Origin: a virus
Lineage: Duplodnaviria > Caudoviricetes
IMG/VR virus record: IMGVR_UViG_3300032243_000123
Span: 1-39,630 of that record
Length of the DNA stretch: 39,630 nucleotides
Strand: one strand, 5' to 3'
The notes below the pieces were generated by a model that did not search any database, had not been told where the DNA came from, and saw only the letters and a list, made by a program, of their open reading frames with translations. Below are positions 15,534 through 38,559 of this stretch, piece after piece. The position numbers and the translations under genes are program-made. The number at the start of each line of letters is the position of its first letter. Position 1 is the first letter of the stretch.

Positions 15534-15795
15534 CGCTGCCCGCTTGCTACCTTGCCAACACTGCGGAACAAGTGACGGCACTGTAGTAGCGGCGCACTCC
15601 AACCAGCTGCGCGACGGCAAGGGGCGTGGGCTCAAAGCTCATGATTATCGAATCGCATCTTTATGCTACAGATGCCACGCTGATCTAGACCAAGGAGCCA
15701 AGATGTCCAAGCAAGAACGTGTTGATATGTGGGAAGAAGCCCATCGCAAAACGATAGGCCTCTTTTTTGAGCAGGAGATTATTGGGCTACTTTAA
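15508..15795 (+). CDS. YbcO/DUF1364-like HNH-type nuclease
   Basis: PCQHCG, VVAAH, GRGLKAHD, LCYRCHADLD. Confidence 0.75.
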   Translation: MYRNKKLTDAARLLPCQHCGTSDGTVVAAHSNQLRDGKGRGLKAHDYRIASLCYRCHADLDQGAKMSKQERVDMWEEAHRKTIGLFFEQEIIGLL

Positions 15796-24700: not shown

Positions 24701-27700
24701 CGGGTTAAAACCAAGCAACTCAGGGTTCTGTAAATAGGCTTTGATGCCGTACTCTGCCAGCTCGCGGTTGTTCTTTGGCCACCAGCCTTGACGCATGTGA
24801 TAGAACATGGACTCAGCCATTGAGCCGTTCTTAATCTCGGGCCACTTGAATAGACCCATCTCTTCCATGATGACATCAACGCGCTTTGCCATGTCAATGA
24901 TTTGCTGATTGACTTTGCTCAACTGCATCATTTCTGGTGTCAATACTCTCTCTTCACCATCACGTTTAGCCTTGGCTTCTTTAGCGTCGTCTTCGTTCTT
25001 AAACCACTGCAGGCCACCATAGGAGCCTGAATCTAAGTTGTACTGATCCAAGACGGCATAGCCTAAGTCTTCAATAAAGACAATCTTGGTTTCCATTTTG
25101 TAAGTCTTGACTGCCAGAGTCTCTGGGTCAATCTGTTCAAGCATCTGCTTGTAGACTTCATTAAGAAGTGGGCGCTCCTTGCCTGCTGGGTAGGCTGTTC
25201 CGCCGTAACCATTCTTCTTTGATATGTATCCATCAGCAACAGTAGGGCCGACTAGATATGGTGATCCACCCTTGGATGCATCGAACAACATAGCCTCAAA
25301 TGCGCGAGACAAAAGCTCTACGTTGGAACTCCAGTAGGCAGGGGTTTTACCTTCTTTCTCGTCTAAAGCGCGGGCATCTCTAAAGTATTGAGTTTGTTTA
25401 AATGAGTTTCTAAAGATTGGCGCTTGCTCATAGTAAGAGCGGTTTGTAATAGCAGCAAAGAACGCTTTCTTAGGAGGTAGATTGCGGTTGTCGGTGCTGT
25501 TAGCCGTGTCACGCAAAATAGCTTTTAGATTGTTCTCTACTGTCTCAGGGTCTATCGTATTTTTAAGGACGCTGACTGTTCCATCCATCAGCTTTTTGCC
25601 ATTAGCTTCCTGCTGAAGATTCCAATCTAGGCCGTGCTGCCACTCATGGCCTAACGATCCGTCGCCTTTGGTCTTGGTAAGGTTGATCTCGTTTAACTTA
25701 GGATAGTAATGAGCTGCAGTTCTGCCGCCCCTACCCTGCGCTCCAATAGCCATCTTGAGCTTCTCGCCCAAGCCAAGCATCTTTGGAGAGATACCAGAGA
25801 CATCCGCCAAGTCGTACATGGCGTCATAGATAGCATTCAGATGAGCCGCGCGCTCGCTTTGGTTAACCCAGTTACCAAAGTCAATACCGCCGGGGAACAT
25901 TCCAAACGTATCTACAAAGTCTTTTGTATCAACGTCACGGCCTTGACGGTGATCACGCATACCACGGCGAATGATGTTGCCTAACTCTGGTGGTACTTCA
26001 GCGTCCTTTTTAACAACGCGGTTAGTTTGGTCAGTAGAGTCTTGAGTATCGGCTGGAAATAACTGATACAACCTATTAAATAGTCCGGTTAAGTTATTTG
26101 ATTTTAACTTGTCGCGCAACTCACGACCATCTATGGTGTATTTTGCTGAACCACTTGCATTTTCATCTTTAACGTACTTTTCTCTTAGCGCAGTATCAAG
26201 TTCAGTTATGCGGGAATGAGAGTCAAATACTTTTTGTAGATCTTGAAGTGCTTCTACATAACTTTGTAAATACTGCTGAACTTGAGTTTCCCCACCATTG
26301 GTTAGGGCAAACTTAATAGCCTGACGGCTACCCATTCTGTCTGATATGCGAAACCCACTTTTTTCTTTAATAGCTGAAAGTAAATAGTCAGAGGCGGGCA
26401 TCACAACGCTTAAAACGCCTTCTTTGTACAGCATTGTTCCAAACGAGTTGTCTGGGTTTGAATTGATGTCAAGCAACTTGTCTAAAGACACGGCATCCAG
26501 CATCTTGCTGATCTGGGCGTCTGTGGCGTCTTTAGGTACTGGAGGAGCGGTAATTAAACCTTTGCGGTTTTTAACAAACTCAGCACCACCGCCTTGGATA
26601 CTTACCTTCTCAGGCTTGTATAGCGCGGAAATAGTTATAAGCTCAGGGCCTGTATAAGATGGGTCATCTGTAGTCGCTTGGACTGACCGATCTGTAATAC
26701 GAAACTTATACTTACTTAAAGCCGCTTCAATATCCGATACATTGCTTAAATAAACGGGGATGCGTAACAACATCTCATCAGGGAAGATGACGGGCATCAG
26801 GTCTTCGGCTACGGCATTTCCATATAGAAGAGACGCAACAGCATCCGCGTTGCCCTCTTCCATGGCAACCTTCATAGGATTTTTATTAAATTCCTCTACC
26901 TTTTTCTTTTGCTCTTCAGCCTTAGCTTTTTCTTCCTCAGCTTTAGCTTTCTCTTCTTCAGAGACTTCTACCTTTGGAGGCTTAGGCGCTTTAGGTGGAG
27001 CAGCAGGTCCGCCTGTAGGCTTCTCAGGCTCTTTGACAGGCGCAGCTGGGCCAGTTACAGGAGCAGGCTCTGCAGGCTTCTCTGTAACTTCTGCTGGTTT
27101 CTCAGTAACTTCGGCAGGCTTTTCTTCTGCTGGTGCAACTTGTTCCGGTGCAAGACTATTACGCAATGCTTTAATAGTTCCAACGGGGTCAGTTCTTAAA
27201 CCCTCGTTGATTTTCATTATTTGAGCAGTGCCTAGCCTCTTGCCAATTTCAGATTGAGCAAATCGCTCAGGACTCATTCGTCCTTTGTTAGCGCTGTCTT
27301 CCAGAGCTTCTAATTCAAAGTCGGCGTCTTCCAAAGAAAGCGGATCCAAGCCTTCGTAAGCAGGACTTTCTAACAACGTATATTTAAATCCTGTTGGTAC
27401 GGGAGATTCCGGTGCGGGAGCTTCTTCAACTTTAACTGGTTCAGTTGGGCCAGCTGTAACTTCAGCAGGCGCTTCTGGTGCAGCAGGCTCCGCTACTTTT
27501 TCAGGAGCAGCTGGGCCGGCAGTTGGAGCCGTTGGCTTGATGTTGAATAGCTCTGGATATTTTTGAACATATTGGCTAACACCTCTAGGAGCTTCCTTCA
27601 TTCCTTCAGCCAAAGCCACGGCTTCATTTATACCAATACCGCCCCTGCGTATAACGGTTTCTAAAGTCTGTCCTCCAAACAAAGGTATTTTTGTATTTAA

Positions 27701-29413
27701 ATCAATGCCTTTGAAGTAACTTATAGGAACAGCAAACCCACCATAACCAAACTCACCATGAATTGGGACTAGTCCATTTTTTGGATCCTTAGCCTTTTCA
27801 TGCAACGCTTGATCGGCTTTAACTTCTTCTGGCGTTCTTGCTGGCGTTACAAGAGCGGCAGGTTGAGCCACTTTAACAGGCGCAGATGGGCCACCTGTAG
27901 GAGTGATCGGAGCGGCTGGCACTTCTGGCTGGGTAACTTTAACTGGTGCAGCAGGGCCTGCAGTTGGAACTTGTTCCACTTGAGGGGCTGCTTCTGCGGG
28001 TTTACCCTCGATCTGCTGCTCAAGTTCAGCCAGCATGGCTTCGTAGTCTTGGCTTGTATCTGCCTCTGGGATAGTCTGTTGGACTAGGTCGGTGCTTGGT
28101 GCTTCGGCAGGCGCAACGGCAGGCGCAACGGCAGTTGGGGGTACAACCTGCACTCCATCAATGTCTACACTACCGTCTTGTCTTGTAACTTTTGTTCCAA
28201 TATTGCCGCCAACATCTACTTGCATAGTGCTAACAACTGGGCTGTTAGATGGAGGCGCAGGTGAAACGGCAGGTGGTTGATTGCCTGCCGGAGGAGTGCC
28301 AAGTATTTGTTGATTCTGTTGAACCAGTTGCTGGATGCCTTGTGGCTGTTGACCAGCCGCGCCAGCACCACCGCCTAGCAAGCCCATACCGAAACCAGTG
28401 ACGGCTCCCATACCCATGGCTTCTGGAACACCCTCCATCAAAGGACGATCTGTGGCGTAGTTCATCCACATCTTTTCCTGACCAGACTGTGGCATCTCTT
28501 GGAATACACCTTCAGAGATTCCTGAGCCAACAGCGCGGCGAGTAAAGTCAACAACTGACTTGGCTGGGCCTAATGAAGAGCCAGTTGCAAGCATGGTTTG
28601 TACGTCATCAAGGCCAAGCTTCTGAGCCAGACGACCGCCAGCTATACCAAACGCGGCAGTTCCAAGACCACTTCCAGCTGCAGCCAATGACTGTTCTGTT
28701 GTGAGTAACTTGTTTGCGTTCTGTGCGCGGATGTCTTCAGCTGCAGAACCTGCGCCCAAGATACCTTCGCCAAGACCACCAGCAATTGCACCGCCAACTG
28801 CAGGAGCAGCTTTTAATATTCCCCTAGCTATGCCAGCGCCACCAATCATTTGAGGCAGTGACTCGCCAATAGATGTGGCAATAGTGCTTGGGTTTTGTAA
28901 AGCGGCTTGGACTGTTGGAACAAATCCTTTGGCCTCGCTTACTTTACGATTGGCCGCTTGCTGTGCTTCAGACAAGTAGGTGTCTAAGATTGCACTAGCT
29001 TCTTTGGGCTTATAGCCGTTTTGTTCAAGGAATTTACCTAGCGCGCCTCGAGTTGGGATATCGGCCAAGCCAACAAATGACTCGGGCAGGCCAATAGCAC
29101 CTTTGAGAAGAGTAATACCAGCATCAACTGCGGTGCCGGAGACTGTGCGCTCTGGTGTTTCTTGGTTACGCTTTTCTAGTGCTGCCTTGTATGCTTGGGC
29201 ATCCATCACATTAGGAGCCATTGGAGCGGCTGGCTCGGCTGGGGCGGCCTGAGCTACGGGAGCTGGCTCTACAGGCGCAATAGATGGCAATCCAGCTTCA
29301 GGAGATTGCGTCTTGGAAGCTGTGTATTTGCCATAACGTGCCAGTAATTCTGTTTGTGTAGTACCTTCTGGGACACCAGTAATTGTGGTGCCATCTGGCA
29401 TTAAGACATCCAT
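15779..29413 (-). CDS. Giant DarB-like polyvalent virion protein (LPD1-like zincin, amino-MTase, strawberry-notch-type SF2 helicase, second zincin, LPD38-like C-terminus)
   Basis: FGNWV...GSLGHEWQHGLD (~25640); DPTGGNG (~24380) and TNPPF (~24200); GDDTGVGKG (~22600), DEAH (~22205), GRIHRTGQ (~20860); LAHEAIGH (~18880); TVNFNRKG...YAFFNASVQG (~16870); last gene of the ejection-protein block. Confidence 0.85.
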   Translation of the reverse strand: MDVLMPDGTTITGVPEGTTQTELLARYGKYTASKTQSPEAGLPSIAPVEPAPVAQAAPAEPAAPMAPNVMDAQAYKAALEKRNQETPERTVSGTAVDAGITLLKGAIGLPESFVGLADIPTRGALGKFLEQNGYKPKEASAILDTYLSEAQQAANRKVSEAKGFVPTVQAALQNPSTIATSIGESLPQMIGGAGIARGILKAAPAVGGAIAGGLGEGILGAGSAAEDIRAQNANKLLTTEQSLAAAGSGLGTAAFGIAGGRLAQKLGLDDVQTMLATGSSLGPAKSVVDFTRRAVGSGISEGVFQEMPQSGQEKMWMNYATDRPLMEGVPEAMGMGAVTGFGMGLLGGGAGAAGQQPQGIQQLVQQNQQILGTPPAGNQPPAVSPAPPSNSPVVSTMQVDVGGNIGTKVTRQDGSVDIDGVQVVPPTAVAPAVAPAEAPSTDLVQQTIPEADTSQDYEAMLAELEQQIEGKPAEAAPQVEQVPTAGPAAPVKVTQPEVPAAPITPTGGPSAPVKVAQPAALVTPARTPEEVKADQALHEKAKDPKNGLVPIHGEFGYGGFAVPISYFKGIDLNTKIPLFGGQTLETVIRRGGIGINEAVALAEGMKEAPRGVSQYVQKYPELFNIKPTAPTAGPAAPEKVAEPAAPEAPAEVTAGPTEPVKVEEAPAPESPVPTGFKYTLLESPAYEGLDPLSLEDADFELEALEDSANKGRMSPERFAQSEIGKRLGTAQIMKINEGLRTDPVGTIKALRNSLAPEQVAPAEEKPAEVTEKPAEVTEKPAEPAPVTGPAAPVKEPEKPTGGPAAPPKAPKPPKVEVSEEEKAKAEEEKAKAEEQKKKVEEFNKNPMKVAMEEGNADAVASLLYGNAVAEDLMPVIFPDEMLLRIPVYLSNVSDIEAALSKYKFRITDRSVQATTDDPSYTGPELITISALYKPEKVSIQGGGAEFVKNRKGLITAPPVPKDATDAQISKMLDAVSLDKLLDINSNPDNSFGTMLYKEGVLSVVMPASDYLLSAIKEKSGFRISDRMGSRQAIKFALTNGGETQVQQYLQSYVEALQDLQKVFDSHSRITELDTALREKYVKDENASGSAKYTIDGRELRDKLKSNNLTGLFNRLYQLFPADTQDSTDQTNRVVKKDAEVPPELGNIIRRGMRDHRQGRDVDTKDFVDTFGMFPGGIDFGNWVNQSERAAHLNAIYDAMYDLADVSGISPKMLGLGEKLKMAIGAQGRGGRTAAHYYPKLNEINLTKTKGDGSLGHEWQHGLDWNLQQEANGKKLMDGTVSVLKNTIDPETVENNLKAILRDTANSTDNRNLPPKKAFFAAITNRSYYEQAPIFRNSFKQTQYFRDARALDEKEGKTPAYWSSNVELLSRAFEAMLFDASKGGSPYLVGPTVADGYISKKNGYGGTAYPAGKERPLLNEVYKQMLEQIDPETLAVKTYKMETKIVFIEDLGYAVLDQYNLDSGSYGGLQWFKNEDDAKEAKAKRDGEERVLTPEMMQLSKVNQQIIDMAKRVDVIMEEMGLFKWPEIKNGSMAESMFYHMRQGWWPKNNRELAEYGIKAYLQNPELLGFNPAKDQREIERYKIADFEGDRVKLKQTQEDFEAAAVRFVSQVITDMRTEGSDTKAIYDHIVGLYQTQPTLDVQSVLSKTNNAYSTPLPIGYLAGMLAQVKSTTTVLDPTGGNGMLVVAANPQNVTTIELDPHRAKNMELMQIGNVIEGDALEKINDLRDQEVDVVLTNPPFGALSTPEQVPSWTGQNYKIGTLDQLIAAKSLRAMANNGRAVLILGAHPKAGTVTSTDRVFLNWLYGNYNVVDHYEIAGNLYRKQGASWPLRVLVIAGRNQTENAYPSDFNISRITTFDELWSRYVQTSDRSQQVVVGTGKKQPATGGANRPAGGVPTGGTLENGEPSGGVGAGEVAGVGEQLPATGRGAGTTAGGGRGTAGAAGAGEQQPDIGKNKRGGSNSGEAGSSERGADSGRGSENELGGLSDVDLDSIFDELGKPEKVKGGPRAPRGASKEAGAPRAPRTPTAKGPTVIPKELEGLGLEALLDELDVALNGKAPEVVKETTPEDSQARLDKQAEEAMGRIAQNTKNTSDDPNSGLYSRKGDQDYANVQPIIQKVWNAIGEKVSDASQRIKQVYALLVTKFGDAIKAHLRTFVDSLRAVVQRRPKNQTPVQAEPIDTESRVVYLGKSRFSSDGIYLPRAQSQHAYSALERLEAQVGSIDEFVANELGYPSVEKMAKGLAGYQIDGLALAIQANKLGKGFIIGDDTGVGKGRAAAAMIVWAKKNGKIPIFVTLSDSLYTAMYEDLSNIGHEDIKIGMTNNESMIQKNIGNGQTKVVFENKGKAGPDLMSYITKNGELPKGMDVLFTAYSQLNGGAGSPARQGAIASLVAAGKAVLIMDEAHNAAGIPTNPDSMGQNAFFMSLLTGINLLGKDKDAPEDWQPPPAVYLSATFAKRPDNMPLYIHTNLRYAANTPEELTALFGKGVKTDVLQQVSSEMLVESGSMLRRERSYEGVTMDFVTDEANAPRDIREVDKVTTILRALVNADRALKEWMKSAAIQEELIKTFGPPGSMLGKIGPTAFTEAKANMFTSVVHNYIGTLLLSTKTQTAVDMVVDKMNNNEKVVVGLQNTNGSALDDFVTKNGIKVGDEIPNFGWQTLLQRAIDSTRKVTLKSATGNKKDNIKIEVPYSMMPPSVRAGYDNLANMLKDFQSDLPVAPIDYMRTQLENKYVWIVDGKTQVGNDPPPGVKARHLVVKEITGRNTAVDYRGDTPKYMALNNPERVAMISSFQNGEDSQNGPIDVLIINSAGATGISLHASTEAFDQRPRHMVVLQPHGDISVFIQLLGRIHRTGQVEWPSFTMLATGIPAERRILAMLRKKLSSLKSNTSGGSSSTKVNGVDFINRYGDVATAEYLNEHADIREFLGQPLFNDPAEQAGTDLAHKASGTAGLLSSADQQEFFDSIEASYLAEIELRNSTGTNALERRVLPLNAEMIKENLIEEGLDSSNPFLTDVVMAQLNVDVIGSIPTQQNIEDDIAQALNGRTAQQVVEEIDTELNTIFVEVRNQIILKQGTLSAAIAAPEATEKDIEVLTKQKEALDLQFATLGERRERTLSELRNQYAIGTGFESFMLNNVPASAVVIGIKVDKTRIGKSKTGNPYSPSNFQVIFKRNIPEGRVAPTLATLEGPSIDQSSSWRNPPLDQWFALKSVTGGRTTRYVALGNILRAAQLFDKDGGEIAKFTLMNQTEPVSGVIMPAKYQPVAISAQPVRLRNPNAAVQYTLSAWQKIVQKKADDTGVQEYQAISDQLKPLLLPNLPDFQTFIDLQKSTYTNVVIRGTQNLWTLSLDSYRPTGFRLSVSGDAPKKFVTSIKDIPMAKKGGRYEMSGGSSISDPAKIVSLIKQLHKSYPATVEADFGQLAREVMKVEFDDSESKKGMFSRTVAKGGQSVEDVQSQIVPIKGITVNVVQSSDDLPDQCAPSDVEGVWYSGNTVYLVADNLPNAQRVQEVLAHEAIGHAALEAMLGKQLMGSLVKNVLTLEETSKLVKNIAAQVDRTQPGLSDERRAKEIVAVMAERGLYGGLVQRVIQAVRRWLRDAGFTIKFSDSDILALLKNAEKFAAAADSAPKLFGTPEPFYSKNYQGGAAPLAQWSSPDSTTMTDIEYQLADKFVDLKHVIREIEKGAGTIQENFDAYTKETLMHGRASEAIQDFLNKELLPVLKDMREKKVTLAELEEYLHNRHAEEYNIQVAKINLTMPDGGSGIFTDDANTYLNNLTQDQKDKFEALAKEVDAIVKRTQEVVVDGGLETQETVDVWNKTYQNYVPLKRADLDYVHTGSGIARGLQTKGAFNKRAMGSLKDVVDILSNIAVQREKAIVNAEAARVGRALYGLVIANPNPGFWMAVNPDAIKNKKKLEDELINLGLNPIDAQNLFQEPKTPSIDPKTGLVKYQVNPLMRQSDNVFAIRVNGKDRYVFFNGNDPRALRMAKTIKNLESEQLGTILGIVGSATRWMAAVNTQYNPVFGAWNFLRDVGSATINLTATPLAGKQAQVLLNTMPAMAAIYRELRATRKGKAVSSYWVDAYNRYRHAGGKTGFKDQFSKGQNKLTIVERELEKLDRGNARQMADSLFGWLSDYNDTMENAVRLAAFDIATKSVADGGLGLSEQEGAAIAKDLTVNFNRKGAASKWIQVLYAFFNASVQGGLKVGRTLAGPAGRKIMVGGVVIGIMQALAMAMAGFDDDDPPEFIKAKNFIFPTGDGTYKVFPMPLGYSIFPGIGRLITEYILAQNGAISSKKGASDVVVDIMSMTVEAFNPFGSGSLWQMAMPTVADPFAAIAVNKDAFGRPIYKEDRATNPTPGYMRSRESASAVGQFISEFLNYVSSPAGTKYTKGPNFLDYTADEIDYLIGQATGGVGREIMKAVQYAGAVVEGETAEVPTYKVPIVGKFLGETGSPAAISANFYDNVTRLAKHENEIKSLIKNKEPTAEYKSEHPEWRYYNRANYLENQISQINKQIKVAQERDRPEETIQKMKDRKTAMMKKFNEQVKVAQ
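23449..23823 (-). CDS. Probable nested (+1 frame) gene inside the giant protein, 124 aa
   Basis: GGAG-tagat-ATG; globular-looking acidic helical product; coincides with a Gly-rich linker in the host frame. Confidence 0.6.
   Translation of the reverse strand: MFKPVIVANKSWWVPEKNSQLLAVQIDQPEEYQQAVRWKMESLAEEWGLERSLASANNYLQQDGALELPPVGDEEQLVQLVLENSSRILEKINEGDPTVAKPAAQKEALIAVEDQKMNWEDFLT
26920..27965 (-). repeat. Pro/Ala/Glu-rich peptide repeats in the giant protein
   Basis: About six (A/G/T)GP(A/S/T)(A/E)PxK units; tandem EKPAEVT x2-3 and EEEKAKA x2. Confidence 0.7.
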
Positions 29414-29422
29414 GCCCGCCCC

Positions 29423-31024
29423 TTATTTTGGAAGTTGGTCGAATGGTACCGCGTTTGAAGACGAAGAACCACCCATCCATGACGGCAAACTCCAAGAAAA
29501 AGATTTTTTAGTTGGGGTAGGCGTAACTTCTCCTTGAACTTCTGCGGGAGGAGGTAGGCCAGCTTCTATGTAGTAAGGTTTGGCAACTTCATTAATTCGT
29601 TTAAGTGCATCATAGTACTCTTGAGTACCGGGCGTTATCATGCCTTGTTTAATGGCATCAGCAAGACCTTTGACCACTGGGTGAGCATTGACTGTAGTTT
29701 GAACTTTGAGTAGCTTTTTGTCATCTGCGGAAGGTTTTGTTTCTTCAGCAATGTCAGCCATCCTATTGTGATAGTCAAGCATACCCTTCTGATATGAAGC
29801 CGTATTAGCATTTGCCGCCCGTTGGGTTGCTGCAGTTTCTGTTGTATTAAATATGTGAGAAGCCAATGTGCCACGGTCATTTTGAACTTTGGCTGCATCA
29901 AACTTGAGTTTCTCAAAATCAGATTGGGCTTTTTCTCTAGCAGAAACAGCGGCATCAATAGCAGCTGCATTACCGCGGCGTTTGGCATCTTCTTCTTTAG
30001 CCAAGCTTTTGTGGAACTCAATAGCGGCAGTTTCTTGTTTGTCGCGCAAAAGATCTTGTTCTTTTTTAAGAGCTTGCGATGCTTCAGCGGATACAGAAGC
30101 TTGATAGCCAATACCACGGGCTGGATCAGCCTTAGCAAACGCGCTAGCTTGGGCTATCAAACGATCAATACCGCCCTGCTCATAAGCTTGCTGTTCACGC
30201 TTTTCTTTTGCTGCTTGGCGCTTGGTTACTTCTTCATATGGATTTTCTTGGACGCCGGCTAAACGCTGGCTTTCTTTAATACCCTCATAGGCTTGCGCTC
30301 TATTGATAGGCTCAGGAGCCGCCATGGTTAGCTCTGGGGCTGGAGGTAGTGAAGCAAGGATTGACTCATATGAGCCGGGCTTTGGCGCTGGGCGAGCAGG
30401 CGCGGCTACAGGAGCTGCCTGAGATTTTGCTAACTCTGCTGCAATTTGAGCATCATTTAAAACTTGTTTGTTTGGACGTTCTTGTGGGAATGAAACAAGT
30501 TGCTGTTCATCTGGGTTTAATTCTGGGCTGCCAAACGCAACAATGCCACCACCCGCGTAGCTGTTTTCATTGAAGTGGCTTACAGGCAAAGACATTAATC
30601 CACCCTCTGCAGCCATTACTGGTTGTCTTGCAGGAGAAGGTTGCTGTACAGGAGGAGCTTGAGTTAAGTCTGCGCCTTGCGGTAATTGAGTGATTCCTTG
30701 GCCAAATGGCGAGGCTGTAGGATTAACTGAGTTTGGTGCGGCAGCTGGGTTAACTGAGTAAGGATTAGCAGTTGGATTGATTCCAGTAGGAGCCGCCGTC
30801 AGTGATCCAGCAACTTGGTCTTTAATAGTCCCCTTACTGGAGTTTTGAAATGCCGCAGTTGAATCTTCGATTTGTTTGCGACGATTCATTTCAATCAAAG
30901 CAAGGAATGCTGGCACCTCTGGGTTTGAACCATTGGCGTACTTGATTAGGTCTTCGTTCTTAACCGTTAATGGGTCTTGAAGACTGCTCTGAACTTGGAT
31001 TAAGTTTGATGGTTCGATTGCCAT
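29423..31024 (-). CDS. Probable internal virion / DNA ejection protein
   Basis: Ala/Gln/Pro-rich with coiled coils and AxGG motifs; lies between the tail genes and the giant protein. Confidence 0.65.
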   Translation of the reverse strand: MAIEPSNLIQVQSSLQDPLTVKNEDLIKYANGSNPEVPAFLALIEMNRRKQIEDSTAAFQNSSKGTIKDQVAGSLTAAPTGINPTANPYSVNPAAAPNSVNPTASPFGQGITQLPQGADLTQAPPVQQPSPARQPVMAAEGGLMSLPVSHFNENSYAGGGIVAFGSPELNPDEQQLVSFPQERPNKQVLNDAQIAAELAKSQAAPVAAPARPAPKPGSYESILASLPPAPELTMAAPEPINRAQAYEGIKESQRLAGVQENPYEEVTKRQAAKEKREQQAYEQGGIDRLIAQASAFAKADPARGIGYQASVSAEASQALKKEQDLLRDKQETAAIEFHKSLAKEEDAKRRGNAAAIDAAVSAREKAQSDFEKLKFDAAKVQNDRGTLASHIFNTTETAATQRAANANTASYQKGMLDYHNRMADIAEETKPSADDKKLLKVQTTVNAHPVVKGLADAIKQGMITPGTQEYYDALKRINEVAKPYYIEAGLPPPAEVQGEVTPTPTKKSFSWSLPSWMGGSSSSNAVPFDQLPK

Positions 31025-31036
31025 GTTATTTCCTTA

Positions 31037-32242
31037 TTAAGGCGCATTGGGATCAAACTGAACATCTGGCACCGTTTGATTTGGATCATAAATAGGTGAT
31101 TCAGTAGAACCCATCGGCACAGCTTCTCCGCCAGCACCAACCGTGTATCTTGTTCCTGATTGATCAGTCATATAAGTTCCGTCTGAAGATAACGAATATC
31201 CTGAAGGAACTTGATTGGGATTAATTTGATTTTGGTTATTCAAAGTATCTGGATTAATACCAATGCTCTTCAATATGTTGTTAATAGCTGGAACATCTTT
31301 ACCAGCTGCTTTAAGGTTTTGAATAAGTTGAGCCGTGCCTGCAGTAGTACCAAGGGCATTTTGTAAGAAGCTTGGCTTGGCGTTGAACGTGCTTGCAGTA
31401 GATCCGCCAATACCTTTGATGAGGTTGGCTTGGTTTGCCAGCAAAGTGCCGGGGTAATTTCTTTGCTCGAGGTACTGGTTGTACAGAGCATTGAGGCCAG
31501 CTTGGTTTTGACCTTGCTGAGTATTTCCAGCAGTTCCCAAAGCTGTAAGATTTTGCAATCCATACTGAGCTTCGTTTGTACCGACGTTTCCTGCTGCTTG
31601 ATTTGCAGTAGTGGCTTGGGATAGACCTTTGAGGCCTACGTCTGTACCGTACTGGGCTTCCTGAATCTTGCGGGCTTGATCAGCATTGAACTGAGCCGTT
31701 GCTTTATCAAAAGCAGTGTTGTAGCCCTGACCGGTAATAGCGGCCAAATTAGTTCCTAGATTGCGCTGAGTCTCGGTGTCCATCAAAGCTTGTCTAGAGC
31801 CGCCATAAGCGCCAGCTTGTGTGGCCTTGGCGTTGTTTGCTAACTGAGTAATTTGAGCTTGACGGCGGGCTTCTTCCAGTTGTGGATTAAGTGATGCCTG
31901 CAGATATGGGTTCATGTACTGCTGGGCGGCGTTTGCATCAAATGCACTACCAACAGGGTTGTAACTTGTTCCAGCTGCTTGGTTACCAAGGTCTAAAAGA
32001 TTAGTTCCAGCCGTTGTCATGGTTGACGGCAGTGTCAGGTTTGACAATCCTTGCCACGCTTTATTCTGAAGCTCAGAAGTGCCGGCAGTTAATTGACCCG
32101 TGTATTGAGGAGCAGGATTATTAAGAAGCGCCTGACCCTTACCCAGTACGTCTTGAACGTAAGGTTGCGTAAAGGTGCTTGGTCCCGTTACCGTTGCCGA
32201 GCTGGGCGTATCGGTAAGTCCTGAAGATGATAGTAGTGCCAT
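31037..32242 (-). CDS. Probable DNA ejection/pilot protein
   Basis: Q/A/G/N-rich; QQYMNPY and AGAYGGSRQA motifs typical of podovirus ejection proteins. Confidence 0.7.
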   Translation of the reverse strand: MALLSSSGLTDTPSSATVTGPSTFTQPYVQDVLGKGQALLNNPAPQYTGQLTAGTSELQNKAWQGLSNLTLPSTMTTAGTNLLDLGNQAAGTSYNPVGSAFDANAAQQYMNPYLQASLNPQLEEARRQAQITQLANNAKATQAGAYGGSRQALMDTETQRNLGTNLAAITGQGYNTAFDKATAQFNADQARKIQEAQYGTDVGLKGLSQATTANQAAGNVGTNEAQYGLQNLTALGTAGNTQQGQNQAGLNALYNQYLEQRNYPGTLLANQANLIKGIGGSTASTFNAKPSFLQNALGTTAGTAQLIQNLKAAGKDVPAINNILKSIGINPDTLNNQNQINPNQVPSGYSLSSDGTYMTDQSGTRYTVGAGGEAVPMGSTESPIYDPNQTVPDVQFDPNAP

Positions 32243-32251
32243 GGTATTTCC

Positions 32252-34279
32252 TTACTTAGGAATGAATTTGTGTGGGTTAATTTGTTTGCCCTGCTTAGGA
32301 TTTCCCGTGCGGGCTCTGCGAACTTGATCCATCATCTTATATAAGACTTTAGCTCCAGCATCTGTTGAGCCGTTCCCAAGATGAGATACCACATCAGCAG
32401 GAACTACAAACTCACCGTCAGCCAATCTGGCCGGCTGTTTATTACTGATTGAGGCTGGGATATTGTCTGACATGCCATCTCCGGGGCCTTTGAGTAAACG
32501 ACCGCCGTCTGAGTAACCGCCCAAAGAAGATACGCCTCCCCCATGAGCTAAAGACATTAGACCACCGTGAGCAGCAGATACAAATCGTGGATCAAGCATG
32601 GCCTGACCTTGAGCCGCACCATCAATAGGAGCTTGAACTGGTCGAGCATTCCAGTTAAGAACTTGTTGCCTGTAAGCGGCCGCTTGTGCAGCTGGAGTGG
32701 AGTTCTCTTGAGCCAAAGCGCCCAAACCTAATGCAGCGCCGCCAAGCAAGGCCGCATTGCCCAAATTAAATCCTGAAGAAGGTGTCACGGGCGTTGAGGT
32801 TGGTGTGCTTGTCAATGATTTTGAAAGCTCTGCCAATGTTGGTTGTTGAGTTACAGGAATAATATCTGCCAATGGATCTGTTTGCTGGGCTGGCATATTT
32901 GATACGGAGTTGGGATCTATACCAATCGCATCCCAATAAGCCTGATCGCTAGCTGTTGTTTGAACGGGCGGAGTAGTAGGTGCTTGTGTTATTCCAGCCA
33001 ATGGATCAGTCTGTTGAGCTGGCATTTCAGATACGGAACTTGGATTAATACCAATAGACGCTAAAAAGTCTTCTTGGCTTGTCTTGAGGTCTGGCGTAAA
33101 TTCCGTATCAACTATGGGAACTTCATTTGGTTTGACTGGTATTGCTCTTTGTTCAGATGGTGTTTCTGTTTTAACTTCTGGCTCTTTCATTAAAGCCTGC
33201 TGTAACCCAGCCACAGATTCATTGTCAGGAGCTAGCCATGCATTGGTCGTAGGATCGTAAAAAGATCCAGCGGGCTTATCCTCGGCTTCTTTAGTAGAAA
33301 GCAATCGATAACCAAATGGGGGCTTGTATTCTTTTGCCGCAGGACTCTCGGCATAGATTGGTGCGCCAGATACATCTACTCTATTAAGAGATGCGGCATC
33401 TAATGGACCAGCAACTTGTACGCCTTTTGGCAATACTTGATCCGCCAAATCAGCCGTAGTTGTAGGCGCCGTGGTTGGCATTGTTCCAGCAAAGGTTGGA
33501 TCAAATATGCTCTCAGCTTTACCTGTATCGCCAGCTTTTAAACCAGATGCGCTGGCTTCCTTGTATTGGGATTTTGCTTCACCAATACCCGCATTAATTG
33601 CGGCGTTTACCAAAGCTTGAGATGGGTCACCGCCCATCAAAGTGGATGCGACAACAGAATTAATCGCCGCCTTTTGACCGGGAGACAAATTTTCAAAGCC
33701 GGGTATTTGATCTGTAATAGCAGCTGTTCCAGCCGATATGCCAGAGTTTGTTAGGGCTGTTAAAGGGTCTTGACCACGAATAACACCTGCAGCTGTGCCA
33801 CCAGCAATCTTGCCGGCTATGTTTCCAGTCACATCGCCAGCCGTCCCCATGCCAGACTCTTGGGCAGCCAGCATATTGCTTTGCTGGGACCCTACGTCTG
33901 TGCCATATGTGTTGGCTGCAGCCGTGCTATCTACGGCAGAGTTAACGTAATTGCTAACGCCTTGGGCTACGCCTTGGGCTACATAAGTGGTGGCAGCAGA
34001 CTTTAGGCCGTCTTCAATGCTTCCACCGTGAGCAATTGTGTCAGCTGCAGAAACAAGAGGGAGGAACTCAGGAGCAACAATTGCAGTAGTTATTTTTGCA
34101 ACTGCACCTATTGGATCAGCTTCAACTGCTTTAATGGTGTTATCTACGGCCTTTACTACAGGCTCAACAACTTGCGTAACAACAGCATTTCCAACATCGG
34201 AGACAACATCTCCTACGGAAGAGACTACGTCACTTACCGCATCGCCAACACTGGAAACTGCATCTGCTACTGCACCCAT
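32252..34279 (-). CDS. Probable ejection protein with amphipathic Met-Gly N-terminus and C-terminal GPGDGMSD..IPA..LADGEFV domain
   Basis: MGAVADAVSSVGDAVSDVVSSVGDVVSDVG; Gly/Ala hydrophobic stretches; C-terminal motif also seen in tape-measure-type proteins. Confidence 0.7.
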   Translation of the reverse strand: MGAVADAVSSVGDAVSDVVSSVGDVVSDVGNAVVTQVVEPVVKAVDNTIKAVEADPIGAVAKITTAIVAPEFLPLVSAADTIAHGGSIEDGLKSAATTYVAQGVAQGVSNYVNSAVDSTAAANTYGTDVGSQQSNMLAAQESGMGTAGDVTGNIAGKIAGGTAAGVIRGQDPLTALTNSGISAGTAAITDQIPGFENLSPGQKAAINSVVASTLMGGDPSQALVNAAINAGIGEAKSQYKEASASGLKAGDTGKAESIFDPTFAGTMPTTAPTTTADLADQVLPKGVQVAGPLDAASLNRVDVSGAPIYAESPAAKEYKPPFGYRLLSTKEAEDKPAGSFYDPTTNAWLAPDNESVAGLQQALMKEPEVKTETPSEQRAIPVKPNEVPIVDTEFTPDLKTSQEDFLASIGINPSSVSEMPAQQTDPLAGITQAPTTPPVQTTASDQAYWDAIGIDPNSVSNMPAQQTDPLADIIPVTQQPTLAELSKSLTSTPTSTPVTPSSGFNLGNAALLGGAALGLGALAQENSTPAAQAAAYRQQVLNWNARPVQAPIDGAAQGQAMLDPRFVSAAHGGLMSLAHGGGVSSLGGYSDGGRLLKGPGDGMSDNIPASISNKQPARLADGEFVVPADVVSHLGNGSTDAGAKVLYKMMDQVRRARTGNPKQGKQINPHKFIPK
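32861..33060 (-). repeat. Internal duplication of about 23 codons
   Basis: IGINPSSVSEMPAQQTDPLAGI versus IGIDPNSVSNMPAQQTDPLADI, about 129 nt apart. Confidence 0.8.
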
Positions 34280-34280
34280 A

Positions 34281-34712
34281 TCATTGTCCTAAGTTCAAAA
34301 CAATCCGCCTGCCGCCGGACTTGAGCTTGTACTCTTTGAACCCCATGCCGGGCATCGGAGGCTTCTTAGAGATGGCGTGGAACAAAGTACTTATTGCTGG
34401 ATCTTCAAACTCTGTGACCAGCATGTTCATACCTAGCTTCTTGGCATAGACTACATACTGGCGGCTATTCTCTACAAAGTTACGAGCCTTATCAGCATTC
34501 AGTGCTTTGAAGAATCCTTGGCCTTTATTCCCTTTATGTAGGATAAATACCGTGTTACCCATTTGCTTTACGTCTGTATTAGGCTGGGACATCTCTGTAA
34601 GTATGGCGGGGAATGCCACTTTAGGAGAATGCTGAGAATGGGTATTTTCCAACGCGATATTAGCTATATCAGCGATGTTGAGCTTTTTCTCCCTGCTATC
34701 CACCATTGCCAT
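34281..34712 (-). CDS. Hypothetical protein; candidate divergent GNAT-like acyltransferase
   Basis: 1-nt gaps to both neighbours, GGAG RBS; alpha/beta pattern and size fit GNAT; occupies the slot of P22 gp14 / T7 gp13. Fold is inferred only. Confidence 0.6.
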   Translation of the reverse strand: MAMVDSREKKLNIADIANIALENTHSQHSPKVAFPAILTEMSQPNTDVKQMGNTVFILHKGNKGQGFFKALNADKARNFVENSRQYVVYAKKLGMNMLVTEFEDPAISTLFHAISKKPPMPGMGFKEYKLKSGGRRIVLNLGQ

Positions 34713-34713
34713 A

Positions 34714-35802
34714 CTAGATCTCCAGAATTGCTGCAGAATACACGTTACCCATGCCAGCGGCCAAGCTGAGAATCAACCCACCGGGGTTAGACTCATCATA
34801 GGAAAGAAATTGGTTGTCATGTCTTGTGCGATTTTCTATCTTCGGCACAATGCCACGTTTTAAGTCATCAATTAACAAACATGTCTCGAGCAAGCCACTG
34901 GCGCCCATAGTGTGTCCGATTTTAGCCTTGTATGACGTTGCAATGTAACTTCCTAAGCAGTAATTTAGGGCGGCCTTTTCAGCTACGTTATTGGAACTTG
35001 TTCCAGTGCCATGGGTTTTGACTACCTTGATCTGCTCGGCAGTAGCGCCAGATACATGCAAAGCACCCTCAATAGCACGGACAAAACCCTGCCCATCCTC
35101 TCGCTGGCCAATAGCATTTGAGTGGTCTTCGCTAGCTGTGTATGCACCTTTGAGGGTGGCCAGTGGGTTGTTAGAGTCAGCTTCAAACACCGCCAGTACA
35201 GCGCCTTGGCCTACTCTGAAGCCGTAGTTTTCATCATCAAATGCCGAAGGTTTTATACCGGCTTCTTCGTCTTTGAGCGTAAGGGATGCTCTGGCCTCAC
35301 CAAAGAACTCCAGTACCGCATTTGATACGGCGTCTTCTACTGACAGAACAATGACCCGAGCAAACCCATAATGGTTAATCAAGGTCTGTACATCCATCAA
35401 TGCTTTAAGACTGGAGGCGCAGGCCGTGGCATCGGTAACAACATGATCCGTAGCACCCAGAGCTTGGGCCGTTCTTCCAGCGTAGACCTGAGTAAGGGAA
35501 AAGGGGAGGAACTTATATTCATAGGACAACCTTGTTGGCTTTTTAGAGCGTGGGTTGATGCCGGCAAAGTGAGCGTTACCTGAAGCAAGAATAAATGCAG
35601 TCTTACCAACGCGGTTTTCGCGTAGGGATTTAACCAGCTCAGGGTCTAGGACTTTCTCAGCTATACGGTGAGGGGCATAGAACATTCCAGTACTTACGCG
35701 AGCGTATGTCTCTGGAAACCAGTGAACCTTTTGAGGAAACGGCCCCTCCATTAGCTCCACAGTAGATGAGTAGGCTGTGCGGTAGTGGGTTAGGTGGATC
35801 AT
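34714..35802 (-). CDS. fabF: Beta-ketoacyl-ACP synthase (FabF/FabB-like)
   Basis: TACASS (Cys ~35420), KTHGTGT (His ~35012), KAKIGHTMGASG (His ~34913), AFD..NYGFRVGQGA. Confidence 0.9.
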   Translation of the reverse strand: MIHLTHYRTAYSSTVELMEGPFPQKVHWFPETYARVSTGMFYAPHRIAEKVLDPELVKSLRENRVGKTAFILASGNAHFAGINPRSKKPTRLSYEYKFLPFSLTQVYAGRTAQALGATDHVVTDATACASSLKALMDVQTLINHYGFARVIVLSVEDAVSNAVLEFFGEARASLTLKDEEAGIKPSAFDDENYGFRVGQGAVLAVFEADSNNPLATLKGAYTASEDHSNAIGQREDGQGFVRAIEGALHVSGATAEQIKVVKTHGTGTSSNNVAEKAALNYCLGSYIATSYKAKIGHTMGASGLLETCLLIDDLKRGIVPKIENRTRHDNQFLSYDESNPGGLILSLAAGMGNVYSAAILEI

Positions 35803-36080
35803 TTAATTTGCTCCAGAGCCCATTCCATGGATTCAGGATCGCGCGTCTTGTGCAGCTGGATAAAGTCATAAAGTTCTTGCACGGTCTCAGGCTGGAATTC
35901 TTTGGATATCTCGTCGTCAATGTCGTAGATCATCCCCATGAACATGCCGATCATCAGCATGTCTAGGGAGTCAAAGCAGGTTTCCTCAAACTTCTCGTCC
36001 ATCCGCTCAATAGGGACAAACTCATGGTGAGCCGGGCGGGCAACTCTGGCTACTTTGTTAAGCAGTTCTATAAAGTTCAT
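35799..36080 (-). CDS. acpP: Acyl carrier protein
   Basis: 93 aa, acidic; FDSLD phosphopantetheine motif (Ser ~35968); ETVQELYDFI terminal helix; ATGA-coupled to the KAS. Confidence 0.85.
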   Translation of the reverse strand: MNFIELLNKVARVARPAHHEFVPIERMDEKFEETCFDSLDMLMIGMFMGMIYDIDDEISKEFQPETVQELYDFIQLHKTRDPESMEWALEQIK

Positions 36081-36427
36081 CCGACCTTCCAGTTTGTTCC
36101 ATCTGAATATACAGGCGTTTTAACTGCACCACCTGTAACCACAGTTGAACCAAATGCCGGAGCCAAAGCATCAGACACAAACGCCCTAGCCCCAATTCCA
36201 GAAGTTGCAGCACTTGGCAGTGTAGCCACCGTGTAAACGGTAAGGGCTGGGATTATCCCGCTGTCTGTACTAAGTTGATCCAATATGCCTTGTATACGAT
36301 TGAAGTACAAACGCAAAACATTATTAAACTGATTTTGGTATAGAGGGGAATACTCTTCCCCGCCAAGAGGCAGTGCTGGTGCCGCAATCTTGTTAATCTC
36401 AGATTCAGAGGTAACAATGTATGTCAT
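36077..36427 (-). CDS. Small tail-associated protein (needle/tip position)
   Basis: Follows the gp10-like gene; VYTVATLPSA...AFVSDA...PVYSDGTNW tail-fibre-type C-terminal module. Confidence 0.65.
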   Translation of the reverse strand: MTYIVTSESEINKIAAPALPLGGEEYSPLYQNQFNNVLRLYFNRIQGILDQLSTDSGIIPALTVYTVATLPSAATSGIGARAFVSDALAPAFGSTVVTGGAVKTPVYSDGTNWKVG

Positions 36428-38559
36428 CGTCTGCCGTCCTGTCTAATGTCTAGACGGGGCGATCCTAGTTGCCAAGTTACTCCTGCGGCAGTAGACCTGA
36501 CTTCCATAGCCATTTGACGGCCTCTAACCCTTGTATAGATCTGCCCCGTGAATTCTTCAATTGGAAGAGTTGCCGTGCGGGTAATAGTGGCCGAGGCATC
36601 GCCACCTACAGACGCTGGGCTGTTATACCCAGAGCCTGAGTTCTGCATGGGTTTTAAGTACATAGTGACTTGCGGGCTAGTTGCCGTAGATCCTCTAAAG
36701 GTAATGTCTGGTACTACACGCCATATAAACCCAAACCTATCGCCGTCATCAATATCAAACTCAGCAGATGTGATGTAAGCCTCAATAGGTAGAGTCGTAC
36801 CCGTAGTCTTATCGTCAACACCAATTTCATGGTTGACTAAGTTGTAGTCATAAGTGGCTCCAATTGGGTAATCGCTTAGACCAGAATCCAACCATGCTGT
36901 TCTGCCCATAGAGCCGTAGTACCAAACGCCTGTACCGCCTTTACCGTCTGGCTCAAGGTAGTTATAGACAACATAAGAGTCGACAACAGTAGAACCAAGC
37001 GAACAATAGAACCACCAGATTTCATTGAAACCTTCGTTAGTTCCAGACATAACTTGGTCAAACTGGTCTTTGTTGATGTTCTCGAATACATGCTGGCGCA
37101 GATCACAAGACAAGGTTTGAGTGCGGCCGTCGTACTTGTAGAACTTATCCACACCCATCCAATAAGCCACGCCACCAGCATAGCCCACAGCGTTTTCACC
37201 AGCGATAGATACGTTATCGCCTACTAGTTGAGAACCCCAAACTACAGGAGCACCCACATATTGAAGGGAGTACAAAGATGAATCAGTCCACACCAATATC
37301 TCTTGGCGAGCCTGCATGGCCGTGACGATCTTAGAGCCATGAGACAAGCGGAGATCACCGGCCGTATTAGTGGCTGATGGCGTCCACTCCACTACTGACT
37401 CTTGGTTAGACCAGCGGATCTGCATAGGGTCTTGGGTAGTCGATCCAAGCGCATTACATCCAAAGGCAAATACATATCTACTTGTATCAGAGACAAGAAG
37501 GTAGTTTTGTACTGTTGGGCAGGCGGATGCGCTGGCTAAACTGGCGATGTTTATGCCCCGCGAGGACACAGAATGAATACCTGACTGAGAAACGCTTGTG
37601 TTGATGTTTGCTCCGCCATAGGTAGCCGTCAGGTTACAAGTTGATCCAGAAGAGTTGGCTACATAGTAGACAGTTCCCACGGATAGTCCTGTAGGCAATG
37701 CGCCCGTGGTAGTCAACTGGATTGCTGTGCCATTAGGAACGCCAGTCAAACTCCCAAACGTAACCACTGCTGGAGTAGCAATCGTGACCGTGAAATTGGA
37801 ACTTGTTACACCTAGATTAGCGTTCCAAAGATAAATAGCACCACCCCTTGGGCCAAAGATAAGGTCTTGCCCAAAATTACTTTGACTCCACAAGCGCATA
37901 GCATCTGTAGATGCCGCACCAAAGCCCCATGTTCCATATCCCCATAGGCCAGTTCCCCAGCCGCTCAAAGGGACTGCATAAGCGGGGCCGGTGTTGATTT
38001 GATATTGGGCAATCACAGTTCCACCGCCGGGCGATCCTGATGCATCCGTTGCATTAGCCGTGGCCGAGACAGTGATTGTGTATGTGTTTACTGTAATGAC
38101 TGTGACTTTGAACTCGCCGGTCAGCACAGCGGCGGTAATGTTTCCACCCAAACTAGTAATGCCTGCACCACTGAAAGTTACATAGTCGTTGGTTATGCAT
38201 CCGTGCGCTGTGGCAGATACAGAGATTACGCTAGAACTAGCCGTAGCCGTGAAAGGATTGGTTAAGGTGGCTGTAGCCCTGATCGGGGTTACATCGTTAT
38301 AAACACCACCACGCTCAATGTAGAACTTTAAGTTAGTGCCTACACCGATTAGGTTAAGTGCGGAGAGAGTAACCCAATTCCACAGGGATCGGCATATGCC
38401 TAGAAACGTGTCAGTGGAGATGCGTTGCCAGCCGCCTATTTTCTCAGGTGTGCCTTGGCGGAAACGGATTTTGTCGCAGTCGTACCAACCGTTCTCATTG
38501 GTATAGCGAGTGTTCTCCTTATTGACCCCCGGCCTTAGAGCTAGTTTTTTTAGTGGCAT
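36424..38559 (-). CDS. Tail nozzle / DNA stabilization protein (P22 gp10-like) with Thr/Gly-rich inserts
   Basis: RPGVNKENT, PEKIGGW, IRWSNQE, NTAGDLRL, EIWWFY, YVVYNY, RVRGRQ; beta-propeller-like composition. Confidence 0.75.
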   Translation of the reverse strand: MPLKKLALRPGVNKENTRYTNENGWYDCDKIRFRQGTPEKIGGWQRISTDTFLGICRSLWNWVTLSALNLIGVGTNLKFYIERGGVYNDVTPIRATATLTNPFTATASSSVISVSATAHGCITNDYVTFSGAGITSLGGNITAAVLTGEFKVTVITVNTYTITVSATANATDASGSPGGGTVIAQYQINTGPAYAVPLSGWGTGLWGYGTWGFGAASTDAMRLWSQSNFGQDLIFGPRGGAIYLWNANLGVTSSNFTVTIATPAVVTFGSLTGVPNGTAIQLTTTGALPTGLSVGTVYYVANSSGSTCNLTATYGGANINTSVSQSGIHSVSSRGINIASLASASACPTVQNYLLVSDTSRYVFAFGCNALGSTTQDPMQIRWSNQESVVEWTPSATNTAGDLRLSHGSKIVTAMQARQEILVWTDSSLYSLQYVGAPVVWGSQLVGDNVSIAGENAVGYAGGVAYWMGVDKFYKYDGRTQTLSCDLRQHVFENINKDQFDQVMSGTNEGFNEIWWFYCSLGSTVVDSYVVYNYLEPDGKGGTGVWYYGSMGRTAWLDSGLSDYPIGATYDYNLVNHEIGVDDKTTGTTLPIEAYITSAEFDIDDGDRFGFIWRVVPDITFRGSTATSPQVTMYLKPMQNSGSGYNSPASVGGDASATITRTATLPIEEFTGQIYTRVRGRQMAMEVRSTAAGVTWQLGSPRLDIRQDGRR

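Follow-up and report, generated by a model that had tools for sequence, protein, structure and literature searches.

The virus record IMGVR_UViG_3300032243_000123 was analysed whole, and this stretch of 39,630 bases, an incomplete record, is referred to here as the window. Its late operon lies on the minus strand and encodes, in order, an endolysin, a protein of 711 amino acids (aa), a 116-aa open reading frame (ORF), an acyl carrier protein (ACP), a ketoacyl synthase (KAS), a 143-aa protein, a 675-aa protein and proteins of 401, 533 and 4544 aa. We focus on the cassette in the middle of this operon, where the ACP and KAS genes stand directly before a small gene with the predicted fold of a GCN5-related N-acetyltransferase (GNAT), followed by a candidate acceptor. 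The four genes are as follows.

35799..36080, minus strand: phage acyl carrier protein (ACP), 93 aa, assigned from its fold model, DSL serine and profile
34714..35802, minus strand: short FabF/FabB-like ketosynthase (KAS), 362 aa, assigned from Pfam and catalytic residues
34281..34712, minus strand: 143-aa protein with a predicted GNAT fold, in the position of internal virion protein A (IVP-A), assigned from its AlphaFold2 (AF2) model and structural matches
32252..34279, minus strand: 675-aa candidate acceptor with the start MGAVAD, whose putative ejection role comes from its position

The preliminary description of this DNA had placed ACP and KAS inside the late structural operon, chained by ATGA overlaps and 1-nt gaps, and the coordinates bear this out: the junctions joining the 711-aa, 116-aa, ACP and KAS genes are three 4-nt ATGA overlaps, and those joining the KAS, 143-aa and 675-aa genes are two 1-nt gaps. 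The order that it gave, from the tail protein through ACP, KAS and the 143-aa gene to the 675-aa gene, also stands, except that the tail gene does not touch the ACP gene, the 116-aa ORF lying between them. In agreement with its statement, a Pfam scan of 61 window ORFs (28 + 33) gave no match to a reductase, dehydratase or phosphopantetheinyl transferase (PPTase) family. In five related genomes that are at least 90% complete, PPTase (PF01648) and FabG-type reductase (PF13561) were found in 0/5 each with positive controls, so that host enzymes would be needed for these two steps; the dehydratase and FabD families were not searched there. Neither promoters nor terminators exceeded chance level in scans (5 with 12.7 expected, and 12 with 10.5), and so no private promoter is claimed for the cassette. 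No RNA holder is listed for 32252-36427, which says nothing about expression.

The 93-aa protein is too divergent for Pfam, where it has no family match. Its AF2 model (mean predicted local distance difference test, pLDDT, of 87.8) matches best the ACP 1vku (Z 8.4, root-mean-square deviation (rmsd) 2.6, 75 residues aligned), and nearly all of the 50 structural matches listed are carrier-protein chains or entries containing one. The family profile reaches the spinach-type ACP 2ava with an E-value of 5e-4. The motif D37-S38-x-D40 is invariant in 93/93 aligned homologues, and in the model helix II begins at residue 38, that is, at the DSL serine. By its modelled fold and DSL serine the 93-aa protein is an ACP, and its Ser38 is likely the phosphopantetheine site. 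The protein has a net charge of -12 and, in the model, a non-standard extra C-terminal helix at residues 85-92.

KAS has two Pfam matches, PF02801 (E 5e-18) and PF00109 (E 3e-9). Its residues Cys128, His264, Lys292 and His297 are invariant in 29/29 aligned sequences, and in 132/132 after inspection of four motif variants. The gate loop, GFGG in FabF, is changed to GMGN; all 132 phage copies carry GMG[N/S] and lack the gating Phe of FabB/FabF. The Phe of the conserved GFGG gate loop sets the reaction order of FabF (PMC7138838). Against the NCBIfam model for fabF (TIGR03150) the phage protein scores 103.5 bits where the cut-off is 493.75, and all of its 19 NCBIfam matches stay under their cut-offs. 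In the KAS tree, which like the GNAT and ACP trees used below is a quick tree, the phage proteins form a separate clade on a very long branch. Judged by these sequence comparisons, the phage KAS is not a FabF, and with its GMGN gate it would represent an unstudied enzyme class.

No credible match was found for the 143-aa family, which has 421 clusters headed at 50% identity, in Pfam, PHROG, NCBIfam or PDB sequence searches. The AF2 model (pLDDT 91.6) has the GNAT 8iym as its best structural match (Z 11.3, rmsd 2.2, 118 residues aligned), and the N-terminal acetyltransferases RimI (5isv, Z 11.2) and Ard1 are tied with it. Foldseek rows from the PDB are GNATs, and other matches of the model include TofI (3p2h, Z 9.7), SbzI-SbzG (8zt4, Z 9.6), the acyltransferase domain of NcdE and Rv1347c. 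A GNAT acyltransferase fold is therefore predicted for this protein. In gene order it comes after the tail tube gene and before the ejection genes, the position of IVP-A in T7 and P22; the preliminary description had taken it for such a GNAT-like gene just ahead of the ejection genes, and predicted fold and position agree with that view. The model further matches a viral model named internal virion protein A (Foldseek E 1.4e-4), and PF11039 is the nearest named cluster in the Atlas (0.92, 139 shared features), which is a lead only. Alignment of the family with T7 gp13 and P22 gp14 by hhalign gave probabilities of at most 0.2%, against single sequences only. Fold and Atlas features, rather than sequence, thus suggest homology to T7 gp13 and P22 gp14.

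Invariant residues of the 143-aa protein are Ser6, Gly52, Asn53 and Asp74. GNATs usually bind the pyrophosphate of acetyl-coenzyme A (acetyl-CoA) through the motif R/Q-x-x-G-x-G/A after strand 4. No such motif is present after strand 4 in the 143-aa alignments, and in the model strand 4 (65-72) passes into helix 3 (76-92) through a loop of 3 residues, which would leave no room for it. The missing motif fits a donor borne on ACP, or equally a protein that is not an enzyme.

The preliminary description had asked whether ACP, KAS and the 143-aa gene co-occur or lie at scattered positions. A search with KAS returned 70 viral loci, of which one (L070), with an unrelated KAS, was left out and L001-L069 were counted. 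Where the DNA suffices, KAS is directly preceded by ACP in 67/67 loci and directly followed by an intact GNAT in 58/59, so that the genes do co-occur in a fixed order; this arrangement is far beyond chance. At the exception (L024:9118-9551) the GNAT gene is frameshifted, by sequencing error or decay, beside an intact ACP and KAS. The KAS left out (L070:7656-8807) is 29% identical, has an AFGG-type loop and has no phage-type ACP or GNAT adjacent to it. The cassette was found in no cultured phage among 50,697 records, where the sole full match is the uncultured MW202545 and the other 17 KAS matches are partial, 24-32% identical and in unannotated records.

A comparison of neighbouring genes at the 62 loci closest by GNAT indicates how the cassette moves. 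In five of them (L023, L025-L027, L039) the tail gene is a different one (7-14% identity) and homologues of the 401-aa and 533-aa genes are both missing within at least 6.9 kb, while ACP (70-89%), KAS (75-79%), GNAT (66-69%) and the N-terminal part of the 675-aa gene (37-47%) are retained. The three genes and this N-terminal part recombine as one block. ACP and KAS keep their place directly before GNAT through such tail-gene swaps and across GNATs down to about 25% identity.

Searches from the GNAT side covered the best 80 of 403, the best 80 of 315 and 16/16 loci. The resulting 226 GNAT locus records, a set in which some contigs are counted twice and which is biased to full cassettes, KAS having been the query for 70 of the loci, comprise 192 with ACP, KAS and GNAT, 9 with ACP and GNAT, 18 with GNAT alone and 7 cut by contig ends. 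Among the 155 distinct GNATs the corresponding numbers are 130, 7, 14 and 4. Where the DNA is complete, none of the 226 records has KAS and GNAT without ACP. GNAT-only lineages are scattered, and the GNAT tree requires a minimum of 5 changes.

Seven distinct ACPs come from loci without KAS. All but one of them group in a single clade with a support of 100, and the DSL motif is kept in 7/7. Within the clade the proteins are 49-75% identical, and nonsynonymous divergence (pN 0.14-0.32) stays below synonymous divergence (pS 0.57-0.95), which indicates purifying selection. KAS-less ACPs run 1 nt into the start of GNAT. A search of 5 contigs with a KAS-less ACP, two of them 96-100% complete, gave no KAS (positive control 3/3), and in one KAS-less genome no fatty-acid enzymes were found in 69/79 called ORFs, overlapping frames having been dropped. 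A clade of ACPs that is under purifying selection and fused to the GNAT start ties ACP to GNAT, and this long retention of ACP beside GNAT in the absence of KAS is the best evidence that ACP serves GNAT.

In a near relative of the window, a natural deletion of ACP and KAS (L073:5907-5999, also in L072) has left a 78-bp scar of a decayed KAS, and the resulting frame of 30 codons keeps the translational coupling from the 116-aa gene to GNAT. A speed-up of GNAT after the loss of ACP and KAS was considered for L072, where GNAT has 11 private changes against 2, but it was rejected, the tail gene having 20 against 2 and 13 against 6. One KAS-less relative (G008) encodes an Acb2/Tad1 hairpin anti-defence domain (PF24729, E 3e-14) at L280:17968-18198.

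The gene after GNAT encodes 675 aa here and about 440-2000 aa among relatives. Its product has an amphipathic N-terminal helix (residues 2-37), a moderately hydrophobic segment (about 57-78), a low-complexity middle and a conserved C-terminal domain; the hydrophobic moment is 1.65 for residues 2-37 and at most 1.12 elsewhere. A hidden Markov model built from the family gives T7 gp14 only 2.2 bits. By its position and anatomy the 675-aa protein may be ejected. The N-terminus (34279-34050, minus strand) is an acidic Val/Asp helix of strong amphipathicity whose repeats vary in number, and homologues in some relatives have a hydrophobic leader started by Pro in its place, in genes of up to about 2000 aa. 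A motif A-A-x-G-G-L-M-S, possibly a sorting or processing signal, is common to the 675-aa protein (residue 569) and the 533-aa protein (residue 138).

The start MGAVAD had been read as a Met-Gly signal resembling that for myristoylation, with a non-conserved Gly2 named as a finding that would speak against it. The gene that follows GNAT in full cassettes gave 120 distinct N-termini, whose second residue is Ser in 54, Gly in 42, Ala in 11, Pro in 8, Thr in 2 and another residue in 3 (Gly2 had been present in 30/56 of a first, smaller set). Gly2 is thus not conserved, and these counts exclude Gly-specific myristoylation as a rule of the family. A small residue 2 (A/G/S/T/P), however, is present in 117/120 against 652/1094 control ORFs, the 120 being sequences of kin rather than independent trials. 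A small residue at this position is of the kind that permits Met removal. After Met the consensus is mostly [S/G/A]-A-V-[V/A], followed by the amphipathic helix, and the type of N-terminus is the same in all three states, that is, with ACP and KAS, with ACP only and with GNAT alone.

The cassette is flanked by the following genes of the operon.

36424..38559, minus strand: 711-aa virion structural protein, likely tail tube or nozzle (phrog_3287, E 3e-55)
36077..36427, minus strand: 116-aa ORF outside the conserved unit, its stop overlapping the ACP start
31037..32242, minus strand: 401-aa DNA ejection protein, context and alternative acceptor (phrog_4287, E 4e-8)
29423..31024, minus strand: 533-aa likely internal virion protein, context, assigned from operon position with a sub-threshold Pfam match
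15779..29413, minus strand: 4544-aa polyvalent protein with LPD1, Strawberry-notch helicase and LPD38 domains, context (Pfam)

The counterpart of the 711-aa gene in MW202545 is annotated as 'phage stabilization protein', and in many relatives this context gene is replaced. Pfam, PHROG and NCBIfam scans gave 0 matches for the 116-aa ORF, which is missing at many loci that retain ACP, KAS and GNAT. An apparent methyltransferase motif (NPPF) is present in the 4544-aa protein, and several relatives have a wholly different gene at the same position. No capsid, portal or terminase gene was found among the ORFs scanned in this incomplete record. The host-takeover genes of the window lie in the early region, outside the virion operon.

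The phage-type pair of ACP and KAS also occurs, unaccompanied by phage genes, in two betaproteobacterial metagenome-assembled genomes (MAGs).

L138:7720-9128: Rhodocyclaceae ACP and KAS, surrounded by ordinary bacterial genes on a contig of 89 kb
L139:441-1843: Nitrosomonadaceae ACP and KAS, on a 2.6-kb contig

The GC content at third codon positions of the L138 copy is host-like (0.80). This pair lies in a stretch of slightly lower GC, behind two genes without an NCBIfam match. In the quick trees the two copies nest separately among phage copies and, being without GNAT, they indicate a transfer of the pair from phage into bacteria, where it is able to persist by itself. Inspection of the ORFs around both copies, with a scan of three L138 neighbours, showed no protein-lipidating acyltransferases next to them. 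Among the other 39 bacterial matches, all of them distant KAS, the standard GFGG or an AFGG-type loop prevails, and a single pattern-based scan of these 39 loci, which could overlook some, gave 0 matches to a phage-type ACP. Full cassettes with phage-like neighbours were also seen in MAGs of unrelated taxa (L140, L141 and L142; Polaromonas, Balneolaceae and Pseudomonadota), which are probably misbinned and do not name a host.

We infer a mechanism from the genes, motifs, gene order, co-transfer and loss pattern observed at these loci, taken together with the predicted folds. In the reading that we prefer, with a probability of about 0.4, ACP and KAS likely supply an acyl donor, as an optional addition, to GNAT, which would N-acylate the first protein of the ejection type without being Gly-specific. 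A host PPTase would arm Ser38 of ACP, which is proposed because the phage has none. KAS would load its Cys128 with an acyl chain supplied by a host carrier, and this chain would either undergo one round of extension, with malonyl bound to the phage ACP, or be passed on as it is. Without a reductase from the phage, a 3-oxoacyl chain would result, which host FabG, if it acts, would turn into a 3-hydroxyacyl chain. GNAT would then attach the chain to an amine group on the 675-aa protein, in the simplest case the alpha-amine after Met removal, ahead of the amphipathic helix, and this acylation would take place during assembly. The chain may aid the entry of the 675-aa protein into the host envelope, or its loading into the head. 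In lineages without KAS, ACP would be loaded by host enzymes, and those without ACP would use a host donor. A wider form of this proposal, which we consider possible, if somewhat unlikely, is that a large group of aquatic podophages encodes a complete protein-lipidation pathway, in which ACP and the re-gated KAS make a dedicated chain, probably 3-oxo or 3-hydroxy, that the IVP-A GNAT puts on the N-terminus of the first ejected protein as an envelope anchor; on this view the IVP-A found in most podophages, T7 and P22 included, would be a version that borrows its donor.

A number of observations weigh against the preferred reading. The pair is dispensable: a close relative with a GNAT 87% identical has lost ACP and is left with a 78-bp scar of KAS while keeping GNAT and the 675-aa gene, and a complete 60.7-kb genome holds GNAT with neither ACP nor KAS. 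The two bacterial MAGs carry ACP and KAS (KAS identity 61-64%) with no GNAT homologue in their assemblies. Related loci share traits by descent, so the counts are not of independent events, and KAS may have been lost only twice. The GNAT core (E40, G52-N53-T54, H59, N72, D74, N78) is the same, with no difference in net charge, between 9 ACP-less and 97 ACP-bearing representatives, and a partner-specific GNAT signature or charge shift was rejected on these grounds; the missing CoA motif would fit a non-enzymatic GNAT just as well. Known ejection families gave no match to the 675-aa candidate acceptor in Pfam, PHROG or NCBIfam. Beyond the variable Gly2, the Pro2 of 8/120 N-termini, Pro being a poor site for N-acylation, is hard to reconcile with acylation of the alpha-amine.

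Much of this would be expected if ACP and KAS were hitch-hikers, which we consider possible, if somewhat unlikely. GNAT would then be an ordinary assembly factor of the IVP-A type, acetyl-CoA-dependent or non-catalytic, and the pair a separate late module that makes an unusual acyl-ACP for remodelling of host lipids or envelope and is held in place by operon coupling. The deletion of the pair in close kin and repeatedly elsewhere on the GNAT tree, the unchanged GNAT core in its absence, its persistence without GNAT in bacterial MAGs nested among phage copies, and the T7 and P22 IVP-A genes with no adjacent ACP or KAS all speak for this. Hitch-hiking leaves unexplained, however, why phages without KAS keep an ACP clade under purifying selection that is re-fused to the GNAT start, and why the pair keeps its place directly ahead of GNAT, down to GNATs of about 25% identity and through tail-gene swaps.

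The same genomic links would hold if the trio cooperated on an acceptor outside the virion, either a small amine, giving an N-acyl amino acid or a signal resembling an acyl-homoserine lactone, or a molecule of the host envelope. This is unlikely in our view, although the GNAT-fold matches include small-molecule, carrier-dependent enzymes (TofI, SbzI-SbzG, the NcdE domain) and residue 2 is variable, Pro included: whichever of the three states is present, GNAT is followed by one type of N-terminus and travels together with it, and the IVP-A slot is linked to morphogenesis (PMC4819975). An ACP that acts as a decoy or adaptor, as a late sink for host PPTase, malonyl or acyl chains with KAS draining it, or as a structural cofactor of GNAT, is improbable. 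Retention of ACP without KAS, its non-standard C-terminal helix and the altered KAS gate loop would suit such a role, but the host-takeover genes of the window are in the early region and not in the virion operon, and invariant catalytic residues with a strict gene order exceed the needs of a sink.

The preferred reading would give the GNAT in the IVP-A position both a donor and a candidate acceptor, to which the cassette points, and the natural three-, two- and one-gene versions are its built-in controls. If it is true, this would be the first phage-encoded lipidation of a virion protein of a tailed phage, as far as the literature was searched, and such ACP and KAS genes would leave the category of auxiliary metabolic genes. 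No description of the cassette was found in the literature; gene tables in supplements, which were outside the scope, may list its genes as auxiliary metabolic. Nor was any report found there of a donor or substrate for IVP-A, and in the available part of a review of ejection proteins 'acyl', 'acetyl' and 'myrist' occur nowhere (PMC8954989).

Several known systems share features with the cassette. Fatty-acid genes in phage sequence have been described in Rhodobacteraceae prophages, where acpP-fabF-fabG were read as auxiliary metabolic genes; in the available part of that study the genes have the host-type order fabG-acpP-fabF and no link to virion genes or a GNAT (PMC8224337). Acyltransferases that put a fatty chain on a protein engaging the Gram-negative outer membrane are represented by CdiC, which adds 3-hydroxydecanoate to CdiA, and the RTX activators, but there an internal Lys is modified, and the part of the source available mentions no private ACP or KAS (PMC8510554). 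No match to the CdiC/RTX-activator family was found among the searches with cassette proteins.

In position, the closest counterpart is IVP-A itself (T7 gp13 and P22 gp14; Pfam DUF2824/PF11039), a non-virion, acetyltransferase-like morphogenesis protein that is needed for morphogenesis in T7 and is encoded by a small gene between the tail tube and ejection genes (PMC4819975). The T7 and P22 sites differ from ours in having no ACP or KAS, and the next gene there encodes an IVP-B of 200-230 aa instead of 675 aa. The components resemble AcpP and FabF/FabB of type II fatty-acid synthesis, with which they share the ACP fold with its DSL serine and the Cys-His-His ketosynthase. Unlike these, the phage KAS has only 362 aa, scores 104 bits against a cut-off of 494, carries the GMG[N/S] gate and falls in its own long-branch clade, and FabG and PPTase are found in 0/5 near-complete phage genomes. 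As a set, the cassette is best likened to rhizobial NodF, NodE and NodA, a private set of ACP, ketosynthase and acyltransferase, and to carrier-dependent GNATs such as FeeM/FeeL and MbtK. In these systems too, a private carrier and condensing enzyme stand beside an N-acyltransferase and the rest comes from the host, but they are bacterial and acylate sugars, amino acids and siderophores, and the likeness drawn here is one of description. Taken together, the cassette belongs neither to FabF nor to the Gly-specific myristoylation systems, and appears most similar to a private set of ACP, ketosynthase and N-acyltransferase placed in the IVP-A slot.

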